From: Octopus sinensis
Taxonomy: Eukaryota
Length of the DNA stretch: 64,000 bases
Direction of reading: 5' to 3'
Assembly: GCF_006345805.1 (NCBI RefSeq)
Contig: NC_043009.1
Span: forward strand, 1,178,001-1,242,000
Of this stretch, positions 5,968 to 52,129 are shown one piece after another (the first letter of the stretch is position 1; every line of letters begins with the position of its first letter). The notes below the pieces were generated by a model. It ran no database searches, was not told where the DNA came from, and saw only the letters and a program-made list of their open reading frames with translations. The position numbers and the translations under genes were made by a program.

Positions 5968-6247
5968 TTAACTGAATACCACAAAATATTTTGCCTTTTG
6001 ATCAATACTCCCAACCCACCACAAACACCTTTGTCAATAGTACTGATACTATTACTTATTGGCTGACAACCCCGTCATATTTTGTGAGGAAGGGGCTAGG
6101 CATTTGGATTGAAGCATTCTGAATTAAGCCAAATATTATGGGCAAGTAACAAAGACAAAATAAACTGAAGACCAAAACATTTTCAAAAAGAAAATAGATG
6201 CAAAGATCATATTTGAGTGTGTGAGTGTTGAGTGGATAGCAACCTAC

Positions 6248-9166
6248 CTTATCTGGTTGTGAAACTGGTAAGAAGGACATTTTGTTGTCAATCCAATTCT
6301 CTTGTCTCGTAGTGCCTGCTTCACCAACACCGGGTACAACACAAATCCTGCTGCCTTCAGGACCATATCCACTAACACCTGGAGCATAGCCACCAGGAAT
6401 TTGTACACTGGCGCCAGGACCAAAGGTCCTGCCTTCAGAAGCAATTCTGTTGTCAGTTGCATACAGTCTGCTGTCGGGCCTGTGTATTTTACCGTTTGGA
6501 CCATAGAATCTACCGTCAGGACCAAAGTATGCACTGTCAGGACTATATAGTTCACCATCGGGACCATACACCCTGCCATCTGGACTGTATACATGTCCGT
6601 CTGGGCCATAACCTTTACCATCTGGACCATACAATCCACCGTCGGGGCCATACACTTTGCCCTCTGGACCATATATAGAGCCACCAGGGCCATGACCTTT
6701 GCCATCAGGGGAATAAAATCTTTCGTCAGGACTATACAAGGTGCCATTGGGACCATACATTTTGCCATCAGGACTGTACAGTCGATTATCAGGACCAAAT
6801 ATCTTGCCATCAGGACCGAATAGTCTGCCGTCAGGACCATAAACTAGAGCATCAGCGTTGTATGGCTTACCATTAGGACCATACACCCTACCATCTGGAG
6901 TATAAACACTGTTGTGGGGACCATACCCTTTGCCATCAGGACCATGCAATTTACCGCCAGGGCCATACACCTGACCTCCTGGACCATACACTTTGCCGTC
7001 GGGACCATAATTTCTTCCACTTGGACAACACACAACACCATCAGGGCCATAACCTTTGCTAGGAGAGGAATAAAATCTTTTGTCTGGACTGTACAGTTTA
7101 CCATTGGGTCCCACCATTTTGCCATCAGGAGTGAACTCCCTACCACCAGGACCAAATACTTTGCCATCTGGACCATAGAATCTACCATCAGGACCATAGT
7201 ATCTACTGTCAGGACTGTATAATTCTTTGTCAGGACCATAAACCCTGCCATCTGGACCATAGACATGTCCTTTGGGACCATATCCCTTGCCGTCAGGGCC
7301 ATGTGGTTTGCCATCAGGACCATATATTCTACCATCAGGAGCAAATATTTTGCCATCAGGGCCATGACCTTTGCCATCAGGAGCATAAAATCGTTTGTCT
7401 GGTTCGTACAGTTGTCCATTTGGACCATACAATCTGCCGTCAGGACTGTACGCTTCACCATTTGGACCATAGCCTTTGCCATGAGGCTCTGGAAGTCCAA
7501 AACCTTTCCCTTCTGGAGCTTTGTATCCTTTTCCTTCTGGAAGCCCACACACTCTGCCATCAGGAGAGTACAGTCGATTATCAGGGCCACATATCTGGCC
7601 ATTGGGACCAAATAGTCTGCCATCAGGGCTGAAAACTTGACTATCTTGACTGTATGGCTTACCATTAGGACCATACACCCTACCATCTGGGGTATAAACA
7701 CTGTTGTTGGGGCCATAACCTTTGCCATCACGGCCATGCAGTTTACCGTCAGGGCCATACGTCAAGCCATCTGGGCCATATACCTTGCCGTCAGGACCAT
7801 AATTTCTACCACTTGGACAACACACGACACCATCGGGACCATACCCTTTGCCGTCAGGGTGATAAAATCTTTTGTCTGGACTGTATAGCCTATCATTGGG
7901 TCCCACCAGCTTGCCATCAGGTGTGAACAGTCTGCCTCCAGGACCAAATACTTTGCCATCTGGACCATAAAATCTACCATCAGGACCATAGTATCTACTG
8001 TCAGGAGTGTATAATTCTCCGTCAGGACCATAAACCCTGCCGTCTGGACCATAGACATGTCCTTTGGGGCCATATCCTTTGCCATCAGGGCCATATGATT
8101 TGCCATCAGGACCATACATTCTACCATCAGGAGCATATATTTTGCCACCAGGGCCATAACCTTTGCCATCAGGAGCATAAAATCGTTTGTCTGGTTCGTA
8201 CAGTTGTCCATTTGGACCATACAATCTGCCGTCAGGACTGTACGCTTCACCATTCGGACCATAGCCTTTGCCTTGGGGAGGTTCTGGAAGGCCATACCCA
8301 TTTCCTTCGGGAAGTGCAAAACCTTCTGTTCCTGGAGTCCCACATACACCACCATCTGGATTGTACAGTTTATCATCAGGACCATATATCTTGCCGTCGG
8401 GACCAAATAGTCTGCCGTCAGGACTAAAAACTTGAGCATCAGGACTGTATGGTTTACCATTGGGACCATACACTCTACCATCCGGGCTATAAACACTGTT
8501 GTGGGGACCATACCCTTTACCATCACGGCCATGCAATTTACCGTCAGGGCCATACACCTGGCTATTTGGACTACACACCTTGCCGTCAGGACCATAGTTT
8601 CTGCTGTCTGGACACCATACAGTGCCTTCAGGGCCATGCCCTTTGCCACCAGAGTCATAAAATCTAGTGTCTGGACTGTATAATCCACCATTGGGTCCCA
8701 CCACTTTGCCATCAGGAGTGAACTCCCTACCACCAGGACCGAATACTTTCCCGTCTGGACCATAGAATCTACCATCAGGACCATAGTATCTACTGTCAGG
8801 ACTGTATAATTCTCCGTCGGGACCATAAACCCTGCCGTCTGGACCGTACACCTGTCCTCTGGGACCATATCCCTTGCCGTCAGGGCCATGTGGTTTGTTA
8901 TCAGGACCATATATTCTACCATCAGGAGCAAATATTTTGCGACCAGGGCCATAACCTTTGCCATCAGGAGCATAAAATCTTCTGTCTGGTTCGTACAGTT
9001 GTCCATTTGGACCAAACAATCTGCCGTCAGGACTGTATGCCACACCATTCGGACCATAACCTTTATCGAGAGGAGCTTCTGGAAGGCCGTAACCTTTTCC
9101 TTCTGGACACTTGCATGCATCGGTCAAGGGCACAGCACTGGGATAGAGTTCTCCATTGACACTAGG
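6248..9166 (-). CDS. EPB41: Giant 2919-nt exon (973 aa) of xYGPDGx / xYSPDGx heptad repeats
   Basis: TCTTCTTTTCTAG acceptor, AAG|GTAGGT donor, phase 0 to 0; covers most of ORF 6056..9133 with no stops. Confidence 0.85.
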
Positions 9167-12100: not shown

Positions 12101-15100
12101 AATTTGCCCCCCTATTTAAAAGGTGTGAAACCCTTTAGCATTTAAACTGATCATATCCTGCCTAAATATTTTTCCTGTTTAGTGTTCAAACCAGTCAGAT
12201 CTTGCCTATCATACCTAACCTACAGTATCTTTCTATAAGTATACAATCACATCAATGAAATTTCAAAGCTGTGAGATAATGCCTGATTAATTCAAAACAA
12301 TGTGAATGAATAAGCAATAATCTGAATGCTAAAGGGCTAAATGTAGCTTAGAATAGATAGTTTGTGCGTGCGGGCCTACATGTGTTCGTATTATTAGTTT
12401 CAGCCGTTGAACTGAGTCCATGTTGGGGCACTGCCTTCAAGGAATAATCAATTAGAACAAATGCCAGCGCTTAGCAAGGACTTCGACCATGGAGGGATGA
12501 AACAAAGTGTGCTATCACAGGATTATTACCTTTGCCTTAGCGAAGGCAGAGGTATTGTTTTCAGTCATGTTTGTTTATTTGTTTGTCCGTAGACAAGATA
12601 TCTCAAGAACCACGAGATGGATTCAGATGGAACTTTCAGGGATGTTTGGCCTCGTGACTGGCATGGATTGATTAGATTTTGGGATTGATCCAGTACCTGA
12701 CAAGGATTCTGGATTATTTTTCCTGATTTTTTACTTAATTTTTGAGAGCTGTTGGGTTTATTTTTAGTATTCCCATTAGTGAGAACAGTCAAGTTTATTT
12801 AAGATATTCTCATTTTAAAATCATCTCTGGCCAATTGCTGAGAGGACGTTGGTGTTGCCTTGGCGGAGGTTTGCACTTTCTGAATGCTCTTATTATTATT
12901 ATCATTAAATATCTTCTGAAGTAGATTTGTTTAAAACAAAACTTAGAAAAAAAAAAAAGCTAGCTTATTGAAAGAGATTTAATTAGTGCCATGACAGGTC
13001 AAGTGACTATACAACTTCTTTCATTAGCTTATGAAGGTTTGTGTACATTTTTACCAAGGTCACAACCTATGATCCCGGTCATGACCATCCTGCCTTCTGC
13101 TTTTCTACCAGTGTATCCATGAGGCTATCCCATGTACTGTTTCCTTTTTAAGATGACAGATTTAAGAGAGATTTGCCTATTTCTTGCAGGTCAGGAGACT
13201 GCACAGAGGCATGTGAATTAATGGCTGAATATATAAAGATACGTAAATGTAGACCAAATGTAGGTTAGAATTGTGTAAAATTGGGAATATAATGTGTGTG
13301 TATCTAAGAAATCAGAACAGCTCCAGTTGAACAGCTCTGATATAGAAAAAATACACGAGATAGAGAGAGAGAGAGAGAAAGAACCGGGCCATGTTCTTAT
13401 TAGTAGACAAAGAGTAGATTGCAGATAAGTATTACAGGTTGGTGTTGGTAAACACCAACGACAGACAGAAGATGGCAAACCTTCTCTACCAATTCTTGTT
13501 CTTCGTCTAGAATAGGGGGTAACTTTGTCTTCATTTGCTCTGCCTGAGCATCAAATGTTGTCACCTTATCCTTGCCCTCACCTTCATCATCTGAGGAATC
13601 GGAGGAAGAGGAGGAGGAGGAACTGGATGAATGCTGTAAAGATGATGAGGTGATAAGAAGCATGAAGGTGCGTATAAAATGATGGCAACTAAAGTAGGAG
13701 TACAGTTGTTCTTAAAAACCAATGAATGAACTGCTAAGAAGATCACATTTGGGTGGGAGGGATGCTGGTTTGTCTGTGTTAGCTTGCAGTAAATGTTTTA
13801 TTTTCAAACTATAATAAACGTGTTTTAGAAAGTTTGGATGAGAGGAATGATAAATTTCGTCCTAGGTTTGATGTTTGTCCAAAGAAATGTAAAAAAAAAA
13901 AAAAATTAATTTTTTTTTTCCAGCAGATGATTTGCATCAAGTGTGAACGATGCAATATGAAAAAAATTGGAATAGAAATAGTCTGAAAAATTAACAAAGC
14001 TATCCTCACTTCTATAGATTTGTCTGCATCTATGTACATCGACACGTCTTTGTATATAAGTATATGTGTGTATGTATGTATTATGTGTGTGTACATGCAT
14101 ATTAGCATTATAAGTAAGTGTACGTGTGTATTTGTCAATATATCTATTAATTATGATGTGTGTATTTGTAACTATAGCAGATTAATTCATTTTTAAAACA
14201 AAATTAAACAAAATACAAGATTAAATACATAAAGAAAATTATGCAAACAAGAAAAAGTATAACCATAAACAAATAAAATTTAAAAAACAAAAAAATAAAC
14301 ATTAATAATAAAAAAACAATTTTTTTCAAAATAAATACAACAAAATACAAATTAAAAATTGATAAACAAAAACGTCTGATATATAACATGTTTTCTTTGA
14401 TGAGCATGCTTATATAGCAGGGAGAAGTAGAAGTGACAGCATGAAAATGTCCAAGCCGAAGCCTTAAAGGTAAAAGCCACTTCAGGTGGATTCAGGGGTG
14501 GTTGATTGGTTGCAATAACTGAAATACTAACAAAAATGACTCCAGTTCAAATCCCTGCAAAGTCACTGGGATACTTTTTAACTGTCTTACATCACACACA
14601 ATACATCCAGATTAAGCCATAAATCATAGTCACTAAACTAATTAGCTAAATAATAGATTTGGCTACAATAAATAATTGGTTTGGATCAACAATTATGAGA
14701 ATGTATTTAATATTAATAACAATTATAATAATTCTTTCTAATTTTGGTACAAAGCCTGCAATTTTAGGGAGAGGACACTAGCCCTGATTGCATTAACCCC
14801 AGTATGTAACTGGTACTTATTTTACTGAGGATGAAAGGCAAAGTTGACCTTGGTGGCATTTGAAATCAAAACCAAGAATCAGCTTGTTGCCTTAATAACA
14901 ACAACAATAATCCTTTCTACTATAAGCACAAGGCCTGAAATTTTGGGGGAGGGTGCTAGTCAATTATATCAACCCCAGTACGTAACTGGTACTTATTTCA
15001 TAGATCCCAAAAAGATGAAATGCAATACTGACCTCTGTGGAATTTGAACTCAGTATGTAAAGATAGGTAAAATGCCACTCAGTATTTTGCCCAGCGTGCA

Positions 15101-29684: not shown

Positions 29685-32600
29685 TGTGTACAAGACAATA
29701 GATGAGATAATGGAAAGAACTCTTGCAAAAACTAAGGAAAGCTTAAGTTGCAGCTTTCAGTACTAGTGTTAGTGACTAATAGAAAGACACTAAATGATTA
29801 GTTCACCAAATAGATTGGAACTGGGAATAATAAATTAGTGGATAATAAATTGACATTTATGTACAGGTATATATGTATATGTACACATGAGTAAGCATAA
29901 ATATACAGGTATATGCACACATAATTCACGGTTGCCATTTAGTGAAGGAAAACTAGAGGCAGAGTGGTTGTTTAGTAGAGAACCCAAAAGTTAGAGAGAT
30001 CAAATGCAATGTAAGTGACAAATTAGAAACCTGAGTCATTTCTTTTTCAGTTGGAGATGCAGGAGGTGTTTTGCCCTTATCTTTATCTTTTGGATGTTTT
30101 CTAAATTTGCCAAATAAGCCAAGTCTTCCTTTCTCTTTTCCCTGGAGTATTTATAAAAATGGACAGAGTGAGAGTAGGAAATACAATGAAAGGAGATGAA
30201 ATGGTGAGAGAACAGGACTATTTCGCTTGTAGTCTTCAGATTTATTTTATTGACCCTGAAAGGATTAAAAAACAAAGTCAACCTTGATGGCATTTGAACT
30301 CAGAATGTTAAGTTGGAAGTAATGCTGCTAAGCATTTTTTCCAGCACAGTAACAATTCTGCCAGCTTGTCACCTCAAAACTTCTTGGTGTCATAAATGTC
30401 CATTTAGACCTTGTCAGATAAGCTGTGGCTTGATCTGGAGGTAGAGCAATTTAGAGAGGAAGCAAAATGGGGAAAAAAAAAGAAAAAAATGTTTTGAAAT
30501 TGTACTTATCTAACAAGTGTTTTGATAAATGTCTGTGTATTGAAGGTGAAGTGAGTATATCATTGAAGAAGCATTTTAGCCATGTAAAAATCCACATGAG
30601 CTGTGGCCTGGTCACAGTTTTACTGCAACCGTTTGAAAGTTTGCTAATAGCCAGTTTTTTTCATAGAACCCATCTTTGCTTGCTTTCATGATGATAAAGA
30701 CATGAGTATTCATGCTGACCGATCTTGGTCTCTTGATAGTAGCCGTCACTAGTTACTTGGTACTTGCATCAGTAAATTTCACCAGATTCCAGTGTATACT
30801 GCATATACACACATGAGAAGCAACATGTACAGTAGGTGAAAATTTTGCTGGGGATATACTAGCTTCAATGGTACTAAAGTGGTCGAGAAACATATTTCCC
30901 ATCCAAGAACAAAGCGGCAGTCCTTCAAACATTTTATTTCAAGCACACTCTCTCTTATAATGTCATCTTTATATTATATCAGAAGAGAGTTTGTTTTTTT
31001 TTGTATTTATGAAGCATAACTGTTGTTAAATGAAGGCTCCAGAGGAATGACTGCTAGTGCCAGGGAGGCAGCACAAGTAAATCCAAATTCAAACAAAACC
31101 TTCATCAATTGAGCTAAAATCTGCCAACAGCGTGTCTTCATGGTATCTATGAGTGAATCAGTAATTCAACAATTCTGTGGCTGTTATTAACTTTATCAGA
31201 AGCTTATTATGTTTATTATTGTATAAGTAGTTAATATACACAAATAGCAGCTACTATAATCTATATACATGTGAATTAGCTACTAACCTCATAACGACCA
31301 GCTAAGACTGGCCCTTCAATGTTTTTTTTTAATAGTTAGGGTTAGTGTTACGATTAGATTAGAGAATGGATGTTCAGTGATGATAGAACAACTTTGATAT
31401 ATCAATTTTGGGTTTGTTACTGAATGACAAATACTCAAGGATTTGTTGATACAGAGAACAGCAATTACAATAAACCAGGACATAAAAATGTTTTGCAAAA
31501 GTGTTTCAGGGTCAGTGCAGTTATAAAGATCTTTCTTTTTTTTTTGGCTCACAGAAATAGACAAAATACCAAAAATATGTTGCCAGAAATATTTTTTTGC
31601 CAATGGTGCTGCAACCCAAATAAATTAATGGCTGTGATGATGGACAGCCAGTGCACCTGAATTTTATCAGAAACAACATTTTTCTTCCAAATGGTAAATG
31701 TTTATAAATATAATTCAACATCATCCTCATTGTTCTTACATCTGTTTTTTCCATGCTGGCATGAATGAGATGAAACTTATTGACATAGCATTCTACAGTC
31801 AGATCCTTTTCCGGTCACCAGACTGACCCTATTTTCAATGAAGTTATTTTTATTCCACTGTTCTTCAGAGGCCAAGCTCTTAGGGGGCACACTGTGTATG
31901 AGGGACATACACATGACAAGTCATTTAAATGGTGTTGAGTAAAGGCACATGGAAAGGAAGCATTTATATTCAGGACAGGTTTTTCTACATTTTCTCACAA
32001 TCAATTTTACTCAAAAAGGCATTAGCTCGGCCCAAGCTGCTCAAGGTGTCATCCAGTGGGATGGAACTCAAAACCATGTGATTACAAAATGAACTCTGAA
32101 TCCATGCAGCCATGCCTACACCAGCAATAAGAATCATTTGCTTTATCTGAATGACCACTTATCTGTGACCACTGGTCAGCTGGTCTGATTATTTTTTTTT
32201 AAACAGAGAAAGTGGATGGGCTTTCATCAGCTTTAACCCATGATAACGAAACTTGTAATTAAATTACACTAAGTCTCGATTAATTTCGAAAAATAATCAA
32301 AAGTTTGGAGGAACTTAGTACAATAACTGTTTTCACACATTGGAATATCTCAAACTGGTGACTGAAACCTAAAAGATTCTGACATACTATTAGGATGGAA
32401 GATGTAAATGTAATTACAAGCACTTCTAAAACAGTTAGGTTTTTATATTAGGGAATTCTTAAGTGGTCTAAGGTGGTTTGGTATAAAAAGGAGTTAAATG
32501 GAAGAGGAGTATTTAAAGAGAATTGAATAACATTTGTGACCCTTTTGCTTTTAGTCTTCAGCATCTCTAACAACTCTGTGTAAACATTACCAACCTTCTC

Positions 32601-35600
32601 TTTCTCAGCAGCAACTTCAGGTTCTTCCTGAGGTTTCTGTCCATTCTTAAGGTTGTTACTCTGCAAAAATACAATAATTTTGAAGTGAAAATACAATATC
32701 GTGAAATTTTGTTTTAAATTAAAAAAAAAAGTTTAAAAAAAAAATATTGTTTGAAAAAAAGTTAATTGTAAGCTGCTGTCTTGAATCAATCCAATAACGG
32801 TGGAACTTCAATAACGAACTGTTGTCAATAGAGTGTACTAAGTGCTTTTAACATGGCACATTTTGTCTGTCTTTTCAAGAATGCCAAACTACAAGATGTA
32901 AGGTGGATGGGAGACATAAACATGACAACCCAGTCACTTAAATAGTATCAGGCAAAACCACAAAGTAAACACTCTTGCACACATCTTTTATCCTTTTCAC
33001 GTTGACCAGTCCAAGTGCTCAAAGTAGCCATTATGGGAATGGATAAATTTGATAATATCGAAACAAAAACTGGTTTTGGACTCTAAAGTAATCCACAAAT
33101 TGCTTATCCATACAAATGTTTTCTTCATCTTTCAGTCCTAAATTAACCAGAAAGTTATTTTTTTATATTGTGTTTAATATGAGGAATTTGAGATGAAACT
33201 TTTTGCTAACAACAGCTGGCTGGTAACCCTTTAACCCTTTTGTTACCATATTTCTGTTGAGATACTCTGTTTCTTTCAATTAATTTTAAACATAACAGAG
33301 AAATTAGTAAAATAACGAAGCGAGGGTTAGGAACATAAATTGTGACAGGTTTGGTGGAAGATTTTAATTCAGAACTTTTGAAAACAAGACAGTTGTACTA
33401 CAGGGCCAGAGCCAGTTTCAGCTGGGTCAGTATTGAAAGGGTTAAGCAGATAAAGTGTTTGGGATCCACTAATTTTGATATGAACAGGGATGGCTGAGTG
33501 ATTAAGAAGCTTGCTTTACAACCATGTGATTTTGGGTTCAGTCCTATCGTGCAGCAACAAAGGCAAGTGTCTTCTACTACAGTCCCGAACCAATCAATGC
33601 TTTGCAAGTGAATTTGGTAGATGGAAACTGTGTGGAAGCCCACTGAGTGCATGTGTGTGTGTCTTAGTGTTTGAGTTTGTCCACCATCCGCCACACAAAC
33701 AGTGTTGGTTTGTTTATGTCCTTATAGCAGTTTGGTAAAAGAGTCTGACAGAATAAGTACCAAAAAAAAAAAAAGATACTTGGGCTGATTTGTTCAACTA
33801 AACTTTGGGAGGCAATGCCCCAGCATGGCCACAGTCCAGTAGCTGAAATAAGTAAAGGAAAGAATAACTAGTTGATAACATTATCAGTGGTTATAATGAA
33901 CAGCTTGCTCTGTGTCTGAATCTCAATCAACGCAGAAAAGAATATATATTGTTGAAAGAGATTAGTGATTTTATCCACCTGGTGGTGGGTCGAAAGATTA
34001 GCCTGACTGTCCACTAAAACTTATAGGGATCCAATGGGAAGTGTGTTATGGTCATCACTACTAATTTTCTAATTGCTAACACAATGGGACACAGTACTGA
34101 CTTATACCGTGTGTCTACAAGTCATTAATATCTATGTACCAATGAAAAATATGCTATTTACTCACAGTTTCAAGGTCTGCTGCAACTGGTTTAACTGCAT
34201 CAGCCCTGATTACTGAATCATCATCAGTCTATAACGGAAATAGAAATAATTTAACATCCAATATTTTCATTTCTCTTTTATATTTCTCCTCCAATAAATT
34301 CTCTCTCAAAGGAGATGAAGTCATAAACAAAGCACAAAATACAAAATGGAATTCATTTAAAATAATCTAGTTTTAAATTCACAATCTGGTAATTTCAAAT
34401 TCATAATCTTTAGCATTAGTATACGTTGTGGAATGTAGAATTTTACAGACCTTTATTTTTTTTTTACAGAATAATGGTTGATATTGACAGTTAAAAATTT
34501 TTGATAAATGCCCGAGGGACAACTGCCCATAATCGGGGAGCACTTGGAGTCAGCAGAAACAGAAGTGATCGATAACTGCAATGGTGTGACATCCATGCAC
34601 ACAAACAAACCTACAGAATTCAGGATACTCAAATAGGTATCATATTAAGATTTGTCATCCATCTGTGTTGATATCCTAATAAAATGATTTAATAAGACAT
34701 TTTCATTATTAAAACAATTAGAAAAAAAAAAAAAGTTTGGTTGATGAGGTTTCTCAGTAGATGCACCACTAGTACATGAAAACAAAAAAAAAAACCAACA
34801 AAAAACTCATGGAAAATTATATATCTCTTCATGTCTATCAAGCTATTTCAATTTATATATCCCAAACAATTATCAATCTCAAACAAACCCTATAATGCCA
34901 GAAATATTGATGCTTTTACTAATATTACAAGAGTTCAAGACAATTAGTTTATTGTAACAACAAACTGTAGTTTTATAGTTAAAATGTCTAATAACTAATT
35001 CACGGTAAAAGCAACAGGAATAATTTTTTTTTAAGCCACAATGCTTCAGATTTTAGTAACAAAAAATTAGAACAGGTAGTATTTATATTTCTAAACTAAT
35101 TTTGAAGGTTGGATAGAGAGGAAACACAGAAATGGATGCTATCTCTAAGTCCATACAATATATGAGCTATATATATTAAAAAAGAAAAAAAAAAGGAAAG
35201 TGTTACAAGTGCTTTGAACATTTGCATTAGTGCTTCAAGTGCGATAAAATGAATGTTTTAAAATCTATCTTTGGCAAGCATATTAGTAACAAGCAATAAA
35301 TAAACAAAAAGTCTATCATTTAAAATTAAAGTAAAAAGGGAAAAAAAATGAGAAAAGAACATTGAGAATATTTTGACTGATGTGAAACGAATATTTAATG
35401 CAAGATAAATATTTATAAACACAAATACAAAACAAAAACAAAACGCGGAAAAAAAAAAGAACTACGTATATCTGAAAATACACACAGAACTTATGTCAGA
35501 AGAAATAACTGGGTCACTGGGACAATAGATATAAAAGAAAGTTTTTGACAGAGGGCCTCAAAATCAAATCTGCTCGGTCGAGTCTACCTGTTAACTACAA

Positions 35601-38600
35601 TCAAGCTCAATGAAATGAAGGCTTACGAGAGGTGCAACGGTTTTAAGTGAGGATTGAAAACTCCAGTTGACCTCTTGACCTCGACTTTATCGTAAAAAAA
35701 AAAAAACCCAGATAGACGTTAATCAAATAGAATCGGTTGCTAAGATCAAGAAAGGCAACTCCTTCAATGCTATTTGTGGAAGGTGCATAACTCTTACACA
35801 CCAACCAACAAGGGGAGACACTTTAGACATTAGAATGCTGTTTTCTAACACGAAGAAATACATTTTATGCCTTCAAGGAAGAAATGCAACGTTTTGAGCA
35901 GGGTTCATTCCCATTCTCTCTCCACGAAGAGATCGACCCAAAATGTTAGACTTCTTCTTCAAGGCATATAATTTATTCCACTATTTGAACCTATCGCATT
36001 CTTATTTACCAAAGCACTGCTTTACATATATGCCTGAGTATCGTTTTGTTTTACAAATGTTGTTCTTATTTTCTTGAAGAGATATAGAAGCAATACAAAC
36101 ATTACCCACAGAGATATGGCCAAACTCAATCATTTAAAATATCCATTTCATTACGTTTCTGAGTTCTGTTTCAGTTGGGATAATAAAACCTAATCCCTTG
36201 GATTATTGTTGTTGCTTAGCCTCGAGTCAGTCCTGACTTAACAAACCTATGGCCAACTTTATTCCAGCTGTACCAGGTATAGTGGACTAACGACTACATT
36301 ATGAAATGTCTACCCACCCCACAAGACAATAGGTTGAGATTTGAGGGATTTTGCAGCTATCTTTAGCAAATGTGAGTGGATTGCATGGTGAGATGTGATG
36401 CAAATCACCACAGCTGCTCTTTCATACTCCACCATCTTAGAAAGGGACACATTCAATATGACCCCAGGTGTATTGTCTTTTGAAAGGAGATGGGTTGCTC
36501 TCAACCAAAATGGTTTTCATGATGGATTTTTCTGAGCCTGAAATAATCTAGGCCTAAACAAGTACAGTTAAGCTGCTGAGCTGGGAGTCCACTCATTTCA
36601 ATTTCTTCTCTTCTTTGTATAAATGCATGCATTTATGGGATCACACCAAGATGATCGTTTATCTTTGAATAGTCACATATAATTTTTTCTACTCTAGGCA
36701 CAAGGCCCGAAATTTTTGAAGAGGGGGGGGGGCAGTCAATTAGACTGGCCCCCAGCAACTGGTACTTAATTTATCGACCCCGAAAGGCAGAAAGGAACAG
36801 TTGACTTTGGCGGAATTTGAACTCAGAATGTAGAGACAGGTGAAATACTGCTCAGCATTTCTTCTGACATTTCTGCCAGCTTGCTGCCTTAATAGTTACA
36901 TATGAGAAGAAACAGTGTCTGTAAATGAACTGATACTGTTGTTATTAATGGTACAACTGATTCAATGACTTAAACAATAATACCTGTCATTGAGACAGGA
37001 ACAAATACTGAGATAAGTAGATTTTGAAATGGGATTTCACTTTAAGATACCATAAAATATCTAATTTTACTTTTGCAAGGACTCTTTACAATTCTGCGTT
37101 ATAGTCACACAAAAACACAAAAAAGAGCCTATATGTGACTGTGTTCAAAGGTGTTTACTAATACTAGCTAATCCATTGGTGCTCACTAAGTGAAAAACAA
37201 ATCTAATTCTTGACAGACTAATTGTACAAACACGAAACAGAGAAAACAACATAAAACGAAACGAAAACACGAAGAACACAAGGAAATCCTTTGAGAGAGC
37301 GCTGTACCATTTTGTCAAGACGGTCTTCGGAATTTGATAGTTTATCATTTATGCCCTTTTTCTTTCTCTCCTTCTCCTCCTTTTCTCGCCTCTTCCGTTC
37401 CTCCTCCTCCCTCTTCTTTTGTTCCTTCTCTCGCTTTTTCTCGTCCTTGTTGGAAGGAGGCCTTTTGAGGTAGGAGATGGGCATACCACCTTCTGTGGAC
37501 CTTGCATCATATTCTCCACCCGAGTAGTCGGCAGTCTTAATACTCTGAAAGTAGACATTCTAACACATGCAAATCAAACAACAAAACCACAAATACCCAG
37601 AGCGCAAGACGCAGTAAACAAGCAAGTGCATGTGGAATGGGGATGCCTGCAAGTGCACTTGGTGCATGAAGCAGATTTAAGACAACATTGTGAAATGGTG
37701 TTAGATTAAAACTCAACAGGAAACAAATCACAAATATAAAACAACTCAATCTAGTGCTCCTATCTATATGATATGGTGGTGGGTGACAAAGAGAGAGGAA
37801 GGAGTAGAAGAGTAAGATGGCTAGAAAGTGGAGGGTCTAGAGAGAGAGAGAGTGTGTGAGAGTGGAGTTTGTGGCAGGAGAAGAGTAGAGCTGGTGCACG
37901 AAGGAAAATGGAGCTAGTGTATGAAAGAGATGGTGTAGGGAAGAAAAGTGTAGCTACTGGAAAGAGGTAAGTGTATCAAGTGGGAGGGGAAAAAGAATGG
38001 AGCTTATCTCAGTGGGAGCTCACAAAGGAAAGTGTAGAGGGAAGACTAGAGTTGATGTGTGTGTGTTTGTGTAAAAGTGAAGCCCAAGGAGAAAGTGTTA
38101 GGTGACAGAATGGCAGATGCATGAATCTACATACTACAGGGTAAAGCTGATGACTGGTTATAATATATATATATATATATATTCCACAAAGCATGGCACA
38201 TTACATCAGGATGAACAATGAAGTTAATCCCAGAACATTGGTTAGTCAAGAATAAAGATTATAACAATTACAATTATTGAAATCATTTCTTACATTAGTA
38301 GAAGGTCACAGATTCTGGACACAAGGCACAGTTGATTAAAAAGACTCCCAGTACTAGACTGATACTTATTTTATCAACCTCAGAAAGATGAAAGGCCAAG
38401 ATTTGAACTCAAAATGTGAAGGGGTAGGACTAAATACTGCAAAGCATTTTGTCTAGCACTCACTGACCTCATGATACTAATGGTTTAAAATTTTGGCACA
38501 AGGCCAGCAATTTCAGAGGCTAGGATAAATCAGTTGTATGGACTCCAGTGTTCAACTGGTATTTTATCGACCCTGAAAGGATGAAAGGCAAAATCGACTT

Positions 38601-41600
38601 TGGCAGAGTTTGAACTCAGAATGTCTTTAAGATGAACAAAATGCTGCTAAGTATTTTGCCTGGCATGCTAACGATTCTGCCAAGGCACAAGGCCAGAAAC
38701 TTTTGGTGAGGAGGGGGGGGGGGCCAGTAAATTTATATTGAACCCAATGCTCAATTGGTATTTACTTTAATCAACCCTGAAAGGATGAAAGGCAAAGTCT
38801 ACTTTGGCTGAATTTGAACTCAGAATGTAAGAGTTGGACATACTGCAAAGCATTGTTCTAATGCTCTACTGATTCTGCCAGTTCACTGCCTTTTTCAAAG
38901 TTCAGCTTTTGATTTAGGCACAGGGCCAGCAATTGTGAGAGAAGTGAGGTTAGCTGCTTCAAATGACCCCAGGAGGGATGAAAGTCAAAGTTAACCTTGG
39001 TGGGATCTGAATTCAAGAATGTAAAGAATCAGAGCAAGTCCTGTGGAGCTTTTTATTTGACACTAATGATTCTCCTAGTTTAGTGGGTTTTTTTTTTAAT
39101 AATGAAAATAATAGTAATAATACAATCAAAACATTTACATTAGGTCAATAATAAGGTGGAAGGTAGGCAAAGAGGCTGAGCAGTGAAATTGCTACACTTG
39201 ATTCCAAAGCCAAAAAAATTAGAATCCTGTTTTTGGCATCATTTTAATTTAAAAGCACAATAGTTGAAGAACAGGGGGAATAAAATCCATATAATAAATA
39301 TATAATAAAAATAAATTATTAGTAGTGAGTAATGCTTATTGGTCCAAGAGCTAGGCCACCGACAAAAAAGCCACCAGTCCAAAATATATTAGAATCTATA
39401 TGCAATAAACATTAATGAAAGGCAGGAGCTGGCAGAAGCAAGCCAGTTTATCTATCTAGGCAGTTAATATCACTAATGATGGTAGGTTTAGAAATAAACT
39501 AGACTGTAGCATGTCCCAGGTCAGAATGTCATTTGTAAGTTTGAGAGAATGCCTGTGGAAACATCAGGTGCCTGTCGATCCAGTGCAAAATATACCAGGC
39601 AATAGTATCATCTAGGATGGGCAGCATGGCTGATATATGATGTGAAGGAGACAAAACAAAAAATGAACTGCCTGCATTCATGATGTGAGATTTGAGAGAG
39701 ATCATGAACATCACATCATCAGATGGATAGACAAGGTCAAGAGCACCCTCATTCTAGCATGAGAGAGGTACTGGTGTAACAAACCTCCACCAGATTGTAT
39801 ATGTCCATAGAATTCAAGAAGCTTGGTTACCAAGACAAAGATTGGCTAAATGTAACATCAGGTAAAGGTAAAGACCCCCTTTGGTCATGAATGACCACAG
39901 GATGTACCTAGAAAGTTCCGCTCCAAGGCACAAGTCTGGGCAAGGCTGTTTATGACCAGTAGTCATCCATGCATACCAGCCTCTCCTCTTCATGCCACCG
40001 ATGTTCTCCAAGGGAAAGGCAAAGACCGATACAGCTTGGCACCAGTGACATAGTAAACCATTTCTACAGCTGAGTGAATTGGAACAATGTGAAATAAAGT
40101 GTCTTGCTCAAGAATACAACACACAGCCCAGTCCAGGAATTGAACTCACTACCTCATGATCGTGAGCCTGATGCTCTAATCACCAAGCCATGTGCCTTCA
40201 CCAAATGTAATATTAGAGGAATGGACAACAACAACCAGAACTGTGCCACAACAACTTAGGACAAGATCCCGTGGTAGAGATCCATTTCCTTCTGATGGTA
40301 TGCTTCATATATTCTGTCATTATTAACTATTGTCTTACGAAACAATAAACATTACTGCTTCACCTAACATTACCTCACAGAGTCAAAAATAGGGGATACT
40401 CTCACTTTTTGAATGAATAAGAACAATCAGTGAATTTCAGAACTACTTTCTCCATCCACAGAATACAAAAATAGCCTCCCTCACTTGGGAAAATTAAATC
40501 AGAAAAAAAAAATTTGCCACGTCTTTTAACAGAATTTGTTTTAAAAATGTTTTTTTTTTATCAGTAGACAATTACCTTAATAATAAAATTGAAGCCTTTT
40601 GTTTTAAGGAAATTAAGTTTAGTAGCATTGCTTTTTTTTTTAGAAAAGATTAAATATATATAAAAAAAAATTTAAACCCACCAACATTCTATAAATGAGG
40701 AGATCATCAACTATCAACTGATAGTGTGAGAGTGCAAAACAACTAAAAGAAATACAAGTCAAAGTGCTAAACAAACTCACAACCAGATCGCTTTGAAAGG
40801 ATGCAATATAAGAACTGATGAACCAAAAACTGATACGAAGGGAGGGGTAAAAAAAAACAAAAAAAAACAAACACACTGAAAAACGATAAAAACAAAATTG
40901 AAAATCGTTGACTTACGTCTGGAGAGCTTGGTCTATCATATCTGTCAGCCTCGTTAACGTTGGGGAGAGAGACCACTTTACCATCTTCATTGCCGCCGTA
41001 TTGGTTTTGCATGCCCCATCCTGGATAGGTGGCTTGGTCACCATGTTTTTTATCACGTCGATCTCGTACATCATGGCGAGGAAGTGTTGCAATAATTGGA
41101 TAGTCACCAGCAGATCCGAAAGACTCAGTGCTTGCAATGCGGTCACGGTTGACTGCAACGGGGAGAGAGAGAGAGAGGGCATAATGAAATTCATGGAATG
41201 AGATCGTGGGGTGTAGCTGTTTAGATGCTGGTGATTTGGCAGGGTTGACAGAGTACTTTTTGGCACTGGAGGCAGACAGACAGACAGACACACACATGCA
41301 TACAGAAAGATACACATACAGATTAAGGGAGAGGGATGGCAATAATTTAAAAGCTTATGGCTAAGTCAAACCAGGTTCAATTTTTTTCTCAGCACAGGGT
41401 TAATGGTTAATCATAATAAAAAAACTACCCATCTTTTGTTGTTCTTTTCTTTCTGTTTCAGCCATTGGACTGTGGAAATGCTGGGGCACTACTTTGAAGA
41501 ATTTTTAGCCAATTCAATCAATTGCAGTATTTTTTTAAAGCCTGGTCCTTATTCAATTGGTCTCCTTTGCTGAACTGCTAAATTGTGAGTGGGTGGTAGG

Positions 41601-44600
41601 GAACAGACACAGAAACATGCACACATATATATATGATGTTCCCAAGACTATAGAAGACATTTGCCCAAGATGCCATGCAATGGAACTGAACCCAGAACCA
41701 TGTGATTGGGAAGCAAACTTCTTACCATCCAACCATGGCAATCAGCATGAAATTCTGCTTTAAGAATTTCATATAATCTTTCATAGTTAAAAAAAAATTT
41801 TTTTTGGCATTTTCAGAAAATTTTTGTAAATTGTGCGTATGATTTAAGGGCAATTTAGCTGTTGTTTTTAGCACATCACAGAACCACCTGATGCCTTCCT
41901 GGTTTCTTTATCACTCTGAGATGTACTAATGTTTTTCAATATTTTTCTCCCCATAAACACATTTAATGATTCTTTGCTGGGACATGAGCTAAAAATTTGC
42001 ACTGCCTGTTTTTAAGAAAAAAAAAGAAAAATGGAAAAAGAGAGGAAATTTTAGGTTTAGGATTTAGGGGTAGGTTAAAAAAATTTTTGTTTTCATAATC
42101 GTATGAATTCCTGTGAAGAACATGAATTCACAAAAATTTTCTGAAAATTCCAATAAATAAAAAAGTTATGAGGGTTTATAAGAGGTCTTTAAACCAGAAT
42201 TGTCGGAAAAGGTATAACATTTTTGGTTTTTTTCTTTCTGGGAGAGGTCGGAAGTCAAAAAGCTATCAAAGTAACAAGATTCATGAACTATTTTTTTTTT
42301 TTTGGTGGGGGGACACATTGTACAAAATAATACAAATCTATTGAGCAAAGTACAAAACTTTGATGAGCTCTTACCGTCATCCATACTTCGTGACCGATCA
42401 TAATTGTAAGACTGGGCGTATTTCCCACCACGATTGAAATGAGGATTCTGTCTATCAATTGTATCCTGGCGTGTTTGATATTGTGTGCGACCAGAGTAGC
42501 GGAACTTAGAACCAAACCGTGGGAATACATTTGCAGGTTTAGATGATTCTGGTTCTTTCAGCCTAGAGGGAAAAAGAAATAAGACAAAAGGTTTACATAA
42601 AAATATGCAATATGATGGGATTCTTTCAGTTTCCATCTACCAAATTCCTCGCAAGGCTTTTGGTCAACCAGGAACTATAATAATAGACACTTGCCCAAAG
42701 AACCATGTGGCTGGGAAGCAAATTTCTTACCACACAGCCACAGCTGCAACTCAGAATCCTTTAAGGAATTGCTATTTAGCCCCAGGTCAGTCCTCATTGA
42801 GAAGGATCTATGATCATCAAGACCACCCCATTTTATTTTCAGACATGATTTGCTGTACATAAGACACATCAAGCTAAGTAAAATCGCTGTCTTCCACATG
42901 TACAGGCTTGTCCTTTCGGGTGCTAGAGCCACCTAAAAAGAGCCAGTGGAACGTAATATGCACCCAGCACACACAGTTACGTGGTTGGCGTTAGGAAGGG
43001 CATCCAACCATAGAGACCGATCCACAACGGACAGACTGGAGTCTGGCCAGCTGCCTGTCAAACCGTCCACCTCGTACCAGCATGGAAAGTGGATGTTAAA
43101 TGACGACAACAACAACGATGATGATAATGATGACTACATCAAGACTACTGTCCAAATTAAGTTTCTTTTTAATGCACCAAATCAGAGGCAAAGGTACCGT
43201 TACCCCAAATATCTGGTCCTTATTTCTTCATTCCAACAGACAGCAGATGGAATTAAACTCATATCAAAGGACATAACAAAGTGCTTTCAGCATGATATGA
43301 ACTCATGATGCAAGAGTTGGCAGTCGGATATTGCATCTGATTGGTTATTTTGTCTAATAAAGACAAAGTTAAAAAACCCCCAAAAACCAAGAAAACCTGA
43401 TTTAGAAACCTCCCCCTCCCCACCACACTAATAAGATCAAGATTATGTACATTATTTATGCAAGTCAGACTGGAGGGCTCATTTTAATTGCTGCTTCCAT
43501 GCAGGCCTTCTTCAGGTGTCTTGGGTCAGACTCAATTGTTATATTGGAACTCTGGAATGTAACCCATTCTTTGATCCGTGGAAAGCAACAGTCAACTGAG
43601 CACATCAGTTCGACTTATGTAAATGTCTTTTATCTTTTACTTGTTTCAGTCATCTGACTGCGGCCACGCTGGAGCAGCACCTTGAAGGGTTATATATATA
43701 TTTTTTTAAGTCTAGTACTTATTTTCTCAGTTTCTTTTGCTGAAATGCTAAATTACGGGGACGTACACACACCAACACGGTCGAGTGGTGATGGGAAACA
43801 CACACAGGCTTCTTTTCAGTTTCTGTTTACTAAATCCACTCACAAGACTTTGGTCGGTGCCTGAGGTTATAATAAAAGACACTTGTCCAAGGTGCCACTC
43901 AGTGGGACTGAACCTGGAACCATGTGGTTGGGAAGCAAACTTCTTCTTACCACACAGCCACACCTACATAAATAATACACATAATATAAATTGCTCATCC
44001 CAGAAATATAGAATTGTAAGATCAAGATTACCTGAAGAATGTGTGATGTTCAACACACGTTTTCCAGAGCCGTTTTGCAAGATGGTGATGTTCCAATTTG
44101 AATGAAACTAGAGTATCTAATTTCTCAAACTGAAAATAAAAAATAATATTAGTCAATAAAATATGGTGATTAATCAAGAGTAATTGCAAGGTGGTCATGC
44201 TGGAGCACTGCTGAGCTGAGGGTTTAGCTGATCTGATTAGCCCCATTAGTAATATCAACCTGGTATTTATTCTAATGATTTCTATGGTGACATGCTCTAT
44301 TGTAGATTTTCTAAGCCTGTGCAGCATGCAAAGAAAAGAATGACCCTCACTCCCCACCAAAAGAAAGAAAAACTTATCCAAATTTACATACAGAAAACTG
44401 AAATCTATCACAAAACCCCTTGCAGGTCCTTAAAAAAAGTTGAAAAGCAGGCCTACTAGATTAGGGTTTATTTGACTATAAACAACAACAAACATTAAAA
44501 AAAACACACCATAGAACCAATGGCAATACTTACTTCAGTGGGTCGAAGTTTGATGCCGAAATTTTTCCGCTTATAAGAGATTTTCAAAATCTTTGGCCAA

Positions 44601-46960
44601 GAAAAACGGTTAATCCGAAGTTTGTCCTTATAAACCATAAGACCACTGGCACAAACTCCAAGGAGAATATCCACATTGTTGGAATCCTAAAAATAGACAA
44701 AAAATATGAAACTACTGTGAATTTATGAGAATTATATAAGTATGTAATATTGTTTATCGTTTTCTTTTATCTGTTTCAGTCGTAAGAGTGTGGCCATGCT
44801 GGGGCACCGCCTTGAAGAACTTTTTAGTCAAATGAATCAACCCCAGCACTTATTTTTTTTAAAGGCCTGGTTCTTATTCTATCAGTTGCTTTTGGCTGAA
44901 CTGCTAAGTTACAGGGATGTTAACACACCAACACCAGTTGTCAAGTAGTCGTGGGACACACACACACAAATGGGATTCTTTCAGTTTCCATCTACTAAAT
45001 CCACTCACTAGGCTTTGGTCATCCCATGCTATAGTAGAAGACACCTGTCCAAGGTGTGACACAGTGGGATTGAACCTAGAACTACGAGGCCAGCAAGCAA
45101 GCATATATTTCCTGTGTCTGTTGGTGACTGCATTTTCACTTTATAGGGTCAGTTTTCTCATTTGATGATTACAGTATTACCAGTTCCAATAAACACTCAC
45201 ACACACATATAGACAGACAGATGGATATATATAACATGAGTTATATATCATTGACCTCTTCAGAAAAATATTCGTTCCTTCACCCTCTTCATTGAAATTT
45301 CTTGAATGTTTGGCCATTTTATAATCTTTCCTCTCAATGCCCTTAAAAAAAAAAGACTTTTTTTTTGTTTAATCTGAGTGAAGCCTTCTTTTTCAACTTT
45401 GCAGGTTTCATGATGTCATTACTTGAAGTCTTGTCACGAACTGGCTCAAAGATATAGTTTTATTGGAAAACAATGGCATAAATCTGAATTTCAATTACTC
45501 TTGCAAGTACTGCTAGCACTTCTTACGAGCAGGATTGCCATTCATCGTCATTCAACATCCATTTCCCATGTCGGCATGGGCTTGAAGGTTTGAGAGGAGC
45601 TGACTAGCTGAAGGGCTGTTCAGGCTCCATGTTTTTGACATAGTTTCTATGGCTGGATGTCCTTCCTAACACCAACCACTTTTCAGAGTGTACTGGGTGC
45701 TCTCATGCAGCACCAACATGGGTGCCTTTTATGTGACACCAGCACCTAAGAGCCTGCAAGATTAGGGATGCTCAGATTAGGGATGCAGGGGATGAGCCTG
45801 TATGCAAGGGCAACCATGCTTTTACTTAGCTTGGTGTGTCTTTCCAAGTGCAGCAAATTGCTAGGAATCTCTGGCAGAATCGTTAGCACGCCGAGTGAGA
45901 TGCGCAGCCGTATTTTGTCTGCTGATACGTTCTGAGTTCAAATTCCACCGAGGTCGACTTTGCCTTTCGTCCTTTCAGGGTCGATAAATTAAGTACCAGT
46001 TATGCACTGGGGTCGATATAATCGACTTAATCCGTTTGTCTGTCCTTGTTTGTCCTCTCTGTGTTTAGCCCCTTGTGGGTAGTACAGAAATAGGGATCTC
46101 TGTCCCCTGTCATCCCCTCTGTGAGTCCCAACATGCATTATGGGTGCTCAATTTCTTTAAAAAAAAAAGAATTCAAAATTGTCAGACAACCGAAAACATT
46201 CCATTGTAAATGGGCATTAAATGCATATTCATATTGAATGTCTCTATTACAAAATCATCATGGGAAGTTTGCACCTGTCCTTAATTGGCCAATTGGTGTT
46301 GCATGTTTATTAGGTGTATGCCAATGATGTAATATTTGCCAAGGCATTTTGAATTTCCATATTGTATTTTAGATGGATCTCTTTAAAGCAAAACCAAAGA
46401 CACCAGCAACAAAACTTAAAGTAGGAGATAACTGATGATCAAAACTGTTATCAAGTCCCCTCCAGGGCATGAACAGCAAGATCCTAATCCTATTCTTGAC
46501 AATGTAGTTGACATTTATGATGATGATGATCATCATCATTTAATGTCTGCCTTCCATGCTGGCATGGGTGGGACAATTTGACAGGAGCTGGCCAGGTAGA
46601 AGACTGTACCAGACTTTTGCAACTGTTTTGGCAGGATTTTTTACTGCTGGATGCCCTTCTTGAAACCAACTACACCCAGCGGAGTGAACTTAGTGCTTTA
46701 CATGTGGCGCAAGCACAGGCGAGGCCAGTTTTGGTAAGGTTTTTACAGCTGGATGCCGTTCTAAATGCCAACCCCTTTACAGTGTTGACCGGATGCTTTT
46801 TAAGTGGGACTTGCACTGACAGAGTCACCAAGTAACTAGCAAAACAAACAAAAAATCCTCTGAGAGGGGAGGCGGAATTGGAGGAAGTGATGTTTTGTCA
46901 GATGAGAGAGAAACAGGTGTCTTGCTGTAGAGGAAGTACAAGGTTACCTGGAGAGAGAGA

Positions 46961-47018
<58 letters not shown>

Positions 47019-50000: not shown

Positions 50001-52073
50001 CTCAAGTTGCTGACATAAAGCATTTTCAAAGACCAGGTCCTTAACTATAAAGTTTTCACATACATTTTCCCAAGTCTTAAATATATGAAAACAAAAACCA
50101 AAAAAAAAAATAGTCATGAGTAAGACATAGATAAATAAATAGAGCCAGACCTGTATTTTTTTGTCTGTCTGTGAAATTAGGCCAGATGAAGGACTTTTGC
50201 AGCAACTTAGGATCTGGAACAAACTGACTGGTTTTGTTGTTATTTAACAACTTGGTAAACCGTTAGAAACTCTCTAAATTGCTGGAGCAAGTGTTTACTT
50301 TCACTCTTTAGCGTTCAGATTATTCTGTCAAATGCGATGTTTATTTATTCGCATTGTTTTTGAATTAATCATGCGTTGTCTCATAGCTTTGAGATTTCAA
50401 TGATACGATGTTTTATTTGTCGAATGAGATTGTGGGATAGGTGTGTGGAGAGGCCACATCTGGCTGCTTTGAATATAATACAGTCAGAATATTCTGGTCG
50501 GCTATGACTAGTTTAACCCTTTAGCGTTCAGATTATTTTGTCAAATGTAAGGCTTATTATTATTCATGTATAATTTTGTAGCTTCAAGATTTCAATGATG
50601 TGACTTTATTTTTAAAATGACATTGTAGGGTAGGTGTGAGAGGCCCGACCCGGTCAGTTTAAACCTAAAACAGGTAGAATACTTTGGCTGGTTTATATAC
50701 TAAAGGGTTAAATGTTAATGAGTTAAGGATGGATGCCTTCCTTTCAGTTAGCAAGCGGCAGACCAAAAAGTGAAGTAAAGTAACATGTCTAAGAGTGCAA
50801 TGCTATGCAGCAATACAGACTGAAATGATATCCGTGACTTGTTATGCAACTGTAATATACTATAAAGTATTTTGTTAGTCTATTAGTCTTTTACTGGATT
50901 CAGTCATTTGACTGCGGCCATGCTGGAACAAATCGACCCCAGAACTTATTCTTTGTAAGCCTATTCTAAGCCTTTGTAAGACTTATTCTATCAGTCTCTT
51001 TTGCTGAACCACTAAGTTACGAGGACATAAACACACCAGCATCGGTTGTCAAGCGACGGTGGGGGGACAAACACAGACACACAAAAACATATATATATGA
51101 TGGGCTTCTTTCAGTTTCCATCTACCAAATCCACCCACAAGGCTTTAGTCGGCCTGAGGCTATAGAAGAAGACACTCGCCCAAGGTGCCACGCAGTAGGA
51201 TTGAACCTGGAACCATGTGGTTGGTTAGCAGGCTACTTACCACACAGCCACTCCTGTGCCTACAAATGTATATTAAATATTTTTATAAATCAATATTGCA
51301 TTCTACTGTGTTAGCAGTGCTACTTCAGCACTCGTTAAGGTTGTCTCTACAGGTAGTCCATAGGAATATCAGCCAGCACTGATTTTTGCTATGACATTTC
51401 ATATCCAAGGCGTCAGATGTAAACAAACAATGAGACCAAAGATGGAAAATGAGTAATGAGCTTCTATGCCATATTTCGGGGGGTTTTGCTCCCTTCAGCA
51501 GCACCCATCCAAACCATTAATCATCCTCAAACCCATTACTTAAATAGTCACTATATACAGTGGTGTATAGTTACTGGATATACACCCATTACCCAGGTTT
51601 CATTTTTGATTTCTTTGCTTTTTGTCTCATATAATGAAACATCATAACCAAAATCAGTGCCGGCCAATAATTTCTATAGAATATCTGTAGAGATGACCTG
51701 AAGAAGTAAAGAAACAATATTAGTTAGCTATAGCAATACATTACAGCTTTTTCACTTTCTACAGCGGTTCACTGGAAGTTTGAGTCAGTAGTTCAATACT
51801 GCAGCCAGCCATCCAGCCAGAATGTATCGTTTGATAATTAGAATGTGTATGAGGGACAGTGAGTGAGCTGTATGCAAATGTGTGTGTGTGTGTGTGTGGG
51901 TGGGTGTAGATGGGAATGTGAAACAAGTTAGCAAGGAAGACAGTAACAGGCAAATGAGACAGTATGAATAATAGAATAAATATGCAAAATAAATTGAGAC
52001 ATAGAGGAAGGAGGAAACGGTCAATGTGGCAAGAACACAATTTATGTATAATAAAATAGTTCAAAGTGGGTGG

Positions 52074-52129
<56 letters not shown>

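Follow-up and report, generated by a model that had tools for sequence, protein, structure and literature searches.

The window analysed here is a 64,000-nt stretch of the Octopus sinensis genome (assembly GCF_006345805.1, contig NC_043009.1, positions 1,178,001 to 1,242,000; G000:C13:1178001-1242000 of a 2.72-Gb genome), and its minus strand carries a member of the protein 4.1 family, recognized by its FERM, FA and C-terminal (CTD) domains. Between FA and CTD, in the region known as U2/3, lies one giant exon (window 9166-6248, minus strand; 2,919 nt, 973 codons without a stop) that encodes a 103-kDa insert made largely of seven-residue repeats of the type Tyr-Gly-Pro-Asp-Gly. The exon is bordered by a pyrimidine-rich TTCTAG acceptor and a GTAGGT donor (phase 0/0), whereas the longest open frame in 200 base shuffles averaged 81 amino acids (aa), with a maximum of 175. 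Coordinates, frame and AG..GT borders agree with the stop-free 2,919-nt exon proposed in an earlier sequence-only reading of this DNA by a model. The gene has the following features in the window:

6248..9166, minus strand: giant coding exon, 973 aa, phase 0, in the U2/3 interval between FA and 4.1 CTD (open reading frame, splice data, family scan)
9131..9166, minus strand: exon residues 1-12, putatively older 5' end, like residues 607-618 of the related 4.1 protein P0004 (pairwise alignment, weak alone)
8330..9064, minus strand: heptad block 1, 35 heptads, residues 35-279 (repeat analysis)
7535..8269, minus strand: heptad block 2, 35 heptads, residues 300-544 (repeat analysis)
6428..7477, minus strand: heptad block 3, 50 heptads, residues 564-913 (repeat analysis)
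6248..6331, minus strand: exon residues 946-973, putatively older 3' end, homologous to P0004 617-644 (pairwise alignment)
44032..53749, minus strand: six FERM exons, 53749-53674, 52424-52380, 48029-47850, 47187-47100, 44686-44534 and 44129-44032 (homology, Pfam)
42375..42562, minus strand: FA-domain exon (PF08736, 50.3 bits)
40917..41152, minus strand: first exon past FA (homology, intronless copy)
37308..37544, minus strand: Glu/Lys/Arg-rich charged exon, common to P0004 (homology, intronless copy)
34166..34228, minus strand: 63-nt phase-0 exon (intronless copy, RefSeq model P0198)
32595..32660, minus strand: 66-nt phase-0 exon that adjoins 9166 in P0198 (P0198, intronless copy)
30031..30141, minus strand: 111-nt phase-0 exon, joined straight to 9166 in the intronless copy on G000:C12328
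20718..20789, minus strand: 72-nt phase-0 cassette exon, spliced straight to 9166 (joint in four of four runs)
13481..13633, minus strand: candidate phase-0 cassette exon with a Ser/Asp run, named in the sequence-only reading (junction to 9166 not among the joints listed)

Membership in the 4.1 family follows from FERM_C (60.7 bits in a single-exon Pfam scan; cut-off 23), FERM_M (22.5 bits on one exon alone; cut-off 23.8, E = 1.6e-4), 64-82% identity of the FERM-FA region to 4.1 proteins, and PF05902 (4_1_CTD), which scored 26.3 bits (cut-off 25) at G000:C13:1174490-1174699 and 22.6 bits on the exon that follows. Four further exons lie 0.7-12.3 kb beyond the window start (C13:1177336-1177172, 1174699-1174490, 1166638-1166549 and 1165772-1165671); the short CTD exons had been overlooked by a whole-genome family search and were picked up by the single-exon Pfam scan. 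Most FERM_N exons were not located in a search extending up to 20 kb past the window. Seventeen exons, the giant one included, join into one open frame of 1,674 aa, or 1,833 aa with all nine candidate cassettes (both without most of FERM_N). All exons from 37544 onward are in phase 0 with AG/GT borders, and the giant exon joins in frame with FERM, FA and CTD exons, as had been claimed for the exons upstream of it. The SAB domain is a feature of vertebrate members only, and invertebrate 4.1 proteins lack a recognizable one (PMC3791450).

Splicing was assessed in four contig sets (four studies, 45-105 million letters each), presumed to be RNA although no RNA type is on record, which were aligned to window 5800-25000. 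They come from a group of 20 runs, among 24 listed, that contain at least half of the sequence words of the stretch; 14 of the 20 are presumed to be RNA. All four contained a joint from 20718 to 9166 (CT..AC on the plus strand, that is, a GT-AG intron on the gene strand; depth 123-437). Depth was 164-1,474 in the exon contigs listed vs 2-11 in the intron contigs listed and was flat along the giant exon, where single contigs covered 6248-6756 and 6248-6887. Exon contigs stopped exactly at 6248, and a two-contig loose end was listed there in three of the four runs. Its mixed consensus is reproduced in 30 of 30 letters as an alphabetical tie-break between two exon starts, those of the next downstream exon and of a 4.1-CTD exon, while the next best of 36 exon pairs tried gave 22 letters. 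We infer splicing of the giant exon to the CTD-side exons from these blended loose ends, not from read-through. On the FA side, an intronless 1,023-nt copy of part of this gene's mRNA (G000:C12328:3162-4184, L023; 99-100% identical, two single-base gaps) runs from the end of the FA exon through the next five exons into the giant exon, of which it includes the initial 277 nt, and thus records the junction of 30031 to 9166. The RefSeq model P0198, located on C12328, omits exon 30141-30031, so that 32595 abuts 9166 in it. The upstream partners of 9166 observed were 20718 and 30031; the junction to 13481/13565 proposed in the sequence-only reading was absent among the 15 joints listed (273 more exist).

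No contig in the four sets ran from FERM through the whole giant exon to CTD, and no major internal splice skipping the repeat was seen in them, although contigs lose rare forms. The missing contig and the presumed nature of the runs are what could be said for the giant frame being a separate gene, or an untranscribed repeat, in a 4.1 intron. This is extremely improbable in view of the canonical joint in every run, coverage that ends exactly at 6248, loose ends there that fit downstream 4.1 exons, the intronless FA-to-exon copy, and the homology of both exon ends to another 4.1 protein. The assignment of the giant exon to a protein 4.1 transcript is upheld by the same joint, copy and homologous ends.

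Several smaller observations concern the same exons. Cassette exon 20789-20718, the upstream partner with the best support inside the aligned stretch, is basic, with one Cys and an Arg-Ser-Ser-Ser run, while its neighbouring cassettes are acidic. Further upstream, four tandemly duplicated 63-nt phase-0 exons (minus strand; window 27201-27139, 26362-26300, 25530-25468 and 24630-24568) each encode a Glu/Val/Lys-rich 21-mer, and a loose end at 24632 in one run matches the end of these exons; we take them to resemble titin PEVK cassettes. The intron 0.7 kb upstream of the giant exon acceptor holds four near-perfect copies of a 32-bp unit (window 9860-9991). Two adjacent sense-strand A-to-G differences at window 8898-8899 (Asn90 to Gly) occur in runs X1 and X2, not X4, and could represent either an allele or A-to-I recoding, which is known in coleoids. 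The copy on C12328, annotated in RefSeq as "glutamic acid-rich protein-like", sits between two halves of an interspersed repeat, in place of ∼25 other bases present in the intact repeat. It may be an assembly artefact or a processed copy inserted very recently, in which case the gene would be expressed in the germline.

The giant exon contains 120 contiguous heptads in register, the number estimated earlier, in blocks of 35, 35 and 50 that are split by ∼20-residue Pro/Gly/Glu linkers. Their pattern is K/R-x-Y-G/S-P-D/N-G, with Lys/Arg at position 1 in 87 of 120, a variable position 2, an aromatic residue or His at position 3 in 110, Gly4 in 74 and Ser4 in 22, Pro5 in 110, Asp/Asn6 in 98 and Gly7 in 89. 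Period and register of the consensus given in the sequence-only reading therefore stand, whereas the full consensus is matched by 37 of 120 heptads only; 82 of the 120 are distinct. Lag-7 identity of the encoded protein was 0.38 vs 0.10 (maximum 0.14) in 200 residue shuffles, and the longest run of heptads with two of P5, D/N6 and G7 was 30 vs at most 4 in shuffles. At a higher level, the proposed 265-aa unit is real (264/265 aa, with 80-85% aa identity between copies). Within block 2, lags of 6, 9, 15 and 17 heptads exceeded shuffles, the strongest being 15 (reached by 0 of 500), which we read as duplication history; no solenoid-like period of 2, 3 or 4 heptads rose above shuffles in this block. 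The protein is 22.5% Gly and 14.2% Pro (37% together), with 9.7% Tyr and 13% aromatics, and its 110 Lys+Arg against 115 Asp+Glu give a net charge of about −5.

The origin of the array can be approached through P0004 (760 aa), the nearest 4.1 protein found, which has a near-identical second member, P0131. P0004 shares 82% identity with this gene over 245 FERM-FA columns and is its sister with support of 100/97 (20-row tree that includes 19 of the 120 listed FERM hits). Both ends of the giant exon, with nothing between, align to P0004 residues 607-644: the 3' end matches P0004 617-644 with 17 of 28 residues identical (pairwise E = 5e-11), and the 5' end matches P0004 607-618 with 6 of 12 (pairwise E = 0.002), a match weak by itself. 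In P0004 this 38-residue segment is followed by the same downstream exon, while its counterpart here is 973 residues long. As both exon ends lie 38 residues apart in P0004 without the repeat, the array is likely a lineage-specific internal expansion that grew within an older 38-residue exon on the octopus line, probably from 21-nt units to a ∼15-heptad unit and then to three copies of the ∼265-aa unit. With older exon ends flanking the array, expansion in place is a better description than the grafting onto an adaptor that had been suggested. Against this, the short form comes from one relative (P0004/P0131, assembled contigs), which could instead have lost the array or be represented by an isoform that skips it.

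The FERM hits listed, the best 120 of 7,993 (at most 2,000 aa, mostly vertebrate, and including Capitella, Lingula, Sinanodonta, Tegillarca and Mytilus records), contained a single protein, P0007, with at least four P(D/N)G motifs, and its ∼30-aa repeat follows a different pattern in the same FA-CTD interval. The heptad repeat is thus not widespread in the lophotrochozoan 4.1 proteins among these hits, which supports this part of the sequence-only reading. The P0007 repeat occurs in five Gly-Pro-Asp-Gly-containing copies (P0007/P0132, residues ∼565-700) in a Capitella-like 4.1 protein; P0007 is labelled Ancora sagittata, and since it groups with Capitella 4.1 it is probably a host sequence. 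Short Tyr/Pro/Gly/Asn repeats are also present in the FA-CTD interval of P0015 and P0016. To judge from these sequences, the interval may be prone to such expansions.

Outside the 4.1 family, heptads of this type are not rare. The best match among long proteins was P0123 from Spodoptera exigua, with 75 uninterrupted heptads built in nearly the same way, followed by mayfly and further moth proteins. By a loose rule (two of Pro5, Asp/Asn6 and Gly7), 79 of the 156 proteins P0123-P0278 had at least seven heptads in a row, some of these 79 being trivial homopolymers. Comparable xxxxPDG arrays are present in proteins of moth, microbial and protist-like type, many of them DUF6799, and 14 of 21 proteins chosen for scanning passed the cut-off of that family (PF20606). 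The giant exon itself gave no match to PF20606 (whole exon at E ≤ 1; block 2 at E ≤ 0.1; cut-off 26.8 bits) or to the Tcp10_C profile (PF07202). The repeat-search matches included no FERM protein except a fragment of this same gene (P0198). Because such arrays lie in unrelated proteins, the PDG heptad class is not unique to octopus 4.1, and the resemblance is likely convergent. One moth protein family (P0123, P0124, P0127 and P0129) carries differing arrays at the same place, YGPDG-like in Spodoptera and VQGPGG-like in Heliothis and Helicoverpa, suggesting parallel fast turnover of heptads.

Searches for homologues of the exon gave two matches among proteins of 535-1,703 aa and eight among those of 1,704-4,865 aa; no other cephalopod protein with the array appeared among the best 8,000 candidates, a weak negative, and of 712 representatives, the 150 listed included P0198 as the only cephalopod protein with the array. 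Exon patterns of the cephalopod type returned no match in two metagenome scans, and an Atlas structure search with the exon gave no usable one. The 85 matches in the octopus genome itself comprised the giant exon, the partial copy on C12328 and low-identity repeats. Pfam matches of the exon to Proteasome_A_N, DUF4440, GBD_IRG7_N, DUF6998 and SnoaL_2 were rejected as sums of short repeat matches, and locus L027 (G000:C8:99990001-100000000) was rejected as a relative, being an unrelated simple 21-nt tandem repeat. L027 has long open heptad frames on both strands, so heptad frames in this genome also arise from plain minisatellites. No description of the domain was found in titles and abstract openings of a literature made up mostly of papers outside subscription.

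The giant exon is under purifying selection. The ratio of nonsynonymous to synonymous substitution rates (dN/dS) between the three large units was 0.33, 0.44 and 0.37 (bootstrap 0.22-0.45, 0.27-0.68 and 0.24-0.61). For residues 3-7 of the 120 heptads, conservation was 0.82-0.85 at the first two codon positions and only 0.60 at the third; with third positions scrambled and the first two kept, the heptad is held at the protein level. The variant sites listed in the exon speak against tight constraint, as 7 of 10 change the residue, two of them from Gly7 to Arg. The array might then be a tolerated runaway expansion in which selection keeps the frame open and the chain soluble, with no specific role. 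Such a view agrees with the merely moderate lowering of dN/dS, with these nonsynonymous variants, with similar arrays arising in unrelated proteins and with the poor conservation of U2/3 noted in the available text of PMC3791450. We nonetheless consider it quite improbable, because the heptad is kept at the protein level while synonymous positions are scrambled, and the 103-kDa insert is present in well-covered spliced transcripts in all four runs.

Structure prediction with AlphaFold2 gave a predicted local distance difference test (pLDDT) score of 40.2 for one 268-aa unit alone and 40.6 for 12 heptads with a 30-row in-register alignment. Strand positions 1-4 of the giant exon heptads are 20% Gly and 12% Val/Ile/Thr, compared with 1% and 50% in 14 DUF6799-positive arrays (219 heptads), and such Gly-rich, Val/Ile/Thr-poor strands should weaken a meander with strands of 3-4 residues. 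Foldseek with the alignment-based model ranked CPAP TCP10 (4bxr_A) first (E = 5e-4; template-modelling [TM] score 0.31; root-mean-square deviation 8.5) and Sas-4 TCP third, and an Atlas model of the DUF6799-type array P0216 aligned with Tcp10_C models at TM 0.54-0.56. The beta-solenoid or hairpin ribbon put forward in the sequence-only reading may or may not form, given the low pLDDT of both runs and the Gly-rich strand positions, and its alternative, a low-complexity phase-separating domain, appears to fit somewhat better.

We tentatively prefer, as an account that falls a little short of probable, to see the heptads as a long, largely dynamic chain of PDG turns with Tyr at every seventh residue, clustering and spacing 4.1 and its partners at the membrane. 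FERM-FA would tether the chain there and the chain would end in the CTD, lengthening the reach of 4.1. Local PDG beta-turns may form along it, and the ∼110 aromatic stickers, set at regular distances along a nearly neutral chain, could make weak multivalent Tyr-Pro, Tyr-Arg and Tyr-Tyr contacts, as described for the RNA polymerase II CTD, with condensate-like clustering of 4.1 and partners as the possible outcome. Composition, charge, low pLDDT, Gly-rich strand positions and the residue-changing variants all support a dynamic chain, and the best sequence match in the PDB set was the RPB1 CTD (E = 1.6e-29), via period and Tyr-x-Pro register alone. The RNA polymerase II CTD is disordered and phase-separates via tyrosine contacts, according to the available text of PMC10519987. 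Several points weigh against the dynamic chain: the RPB1 CTD match reflects low-complexity convergence, not homology; both AlphaFold2 models put a short beta-bridge in nearly every heptad, at low confidence; disorder does not follow from a low pLDDT when the repeat alignment is shallow and chosen by hand; and the lack of any register slip in 35, 35 and 50 heptads, like Pro5 in 110 of 120, fits a structural repeat equally well.

Such a structural repeat could be a narrow single-layer beta-meander, with one PDG type-I turn and one strand of 3-4 residues per heptad. At a meander strand spacing of 0.48 nm, the blocks would form three semi-rigid ribbons of ∼17, 17 and 24 nm with Pro/Gly hinges between them, and the tyrosine ladder would bind proline-rich ligands, as CPAP TCP binds STIL. 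The Foldseek ranks of CPAP TCP10 and Sas-4 TCP and the fit of P0216 to Tcp10_C speak for this, as does the precedent of CPAP TCP itself, a free-standing meander with turns that are often PDG and aromatics that bind polyproline (PMC3776556, available text). The meander, although the main alternative, remains doubtful, as the Foldseek match comes from a low-confidence model with a low TM score and its score is fed by shared PDG letters, the exon matches neither DUF6799 nor Tcp10_C, and the strands are Gly-rich with few beta-branched residues. That octopods evolved, inside an old 4.1 exon, a folded beta-meander of seven-residue period serving as a ruler or polyproline rail between FERM and CTD seems rather unlikely; if they did, it would comprise three tyrosine-laddered ribbons with a combined length of ∼60 nm, six times that of the CPAP TCP sheet, and of smaller width. 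An entropic spring, which would lengthen the FERM-to-CTD tether and recoil in stretched soft octopus tissue like titin PEVK or resilin without cross-links, is improbable. Its Pro content is near that of Rec1-resilin (13.8%), the gene also has the four tandem Glu/Val/Lys-rich cassette exons upstream of the array, and the available text of PMC2323113 places large fly Coracle isoforms at the muscle postsynapse. Gly, however, is 22.5% vs 34.2% in Rec1-resilin, a spring presupposes a load-bearing anchor at both ends, and conservation of Tyr3 in most heptads would be needless for a plain spring.

Protein 4.1 connects proteins of the membrane with the cortical skeleton. Little is understood of its U2/3 region, which in this soft-bodied animal contains an added domain of 103 kDa that is under selection and strictly periodic. 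Giant exons in adaptors and long isoforms of U2/3 have been described before, and the heptad type is convergent. The octopus gene offers a traceable case of a new repeat domain probably born in a conserved adaptor, with the short form in a relative as a natural control. The 35-heptad unit, which should be easy to express, could serve as a model for whether PDG heptads with strands of 3-4 residues fold or condense; the answer would matter for DUF6799 as well as for the many similar arrays in unrelated proteins.

Compared with known repeats, the giant exon shares with the RNA polymerase II CTD the heptad period and a Tyr and Pro two residues apart. From the YSPTSPS consensus (Y1-S2-P3-T4-S5-P6-S7), only Tyr and Pro are found in register: of 120 heptads, 74 have Gly and 22 have Ser behind Tyr, Thr4-Ser5-Pro6-Ser7 is replaced by charged Asp, Lys and Arg, and the array lies within a FERM protein. 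DUF6799 arrays have the same period with Pro5-Asp/Asn6-Gly7, and those that are DUF6799-positive have Thr/Val/Ile where the giant exon has Tyr3 and Gly4. The TCP domain of CPAP/SAS-4, top match of the low-confidence model, likewise combines PDG turns with exposed aromatics, but has ∼20 strands, longer than those of 3-4 residues, vs ∼120 potential strands here, and the exon has no Pfam match to it. The likeness to resilin or flagelliform silk suggested in the sequence-only reading is weak. These are also Gly/Pro-rich with regularly spaced Tyr (PMC4455251, available text), but they are extracellular, resilin is cross-linked, and the octopus array, with a third less Gly, is an internal exon of a cytoplasmic FERM-FA-CTD adaptor. 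Protein 4.1 and Coracle have the same FERM, FA and CTD order and many small phase-0 exons in U2/3, a region described as variable and as binding spectrin-actin in amphioxus (PMC3791450, available text). Drosophila cora isoforms range from 699 to 1,698 aa (PMC2323113, available text), so an invertebrate 4.1 longer by ∼1,000 aa has precedent, although the long Coracle isoform was compared by length alone and the octopus insert consists of a single exon with 120 heptads of the Tyr-Gly-Pro-Asp-Gly type. Giant ankyrins, in the available text of PMC12798937, provide a parallel in which one giant exon extends an adaptor of the membrane skeleton, in another gene family and with an exon of 7.8 kb vs the 2.9 kb of the octopus 4.1 gene.

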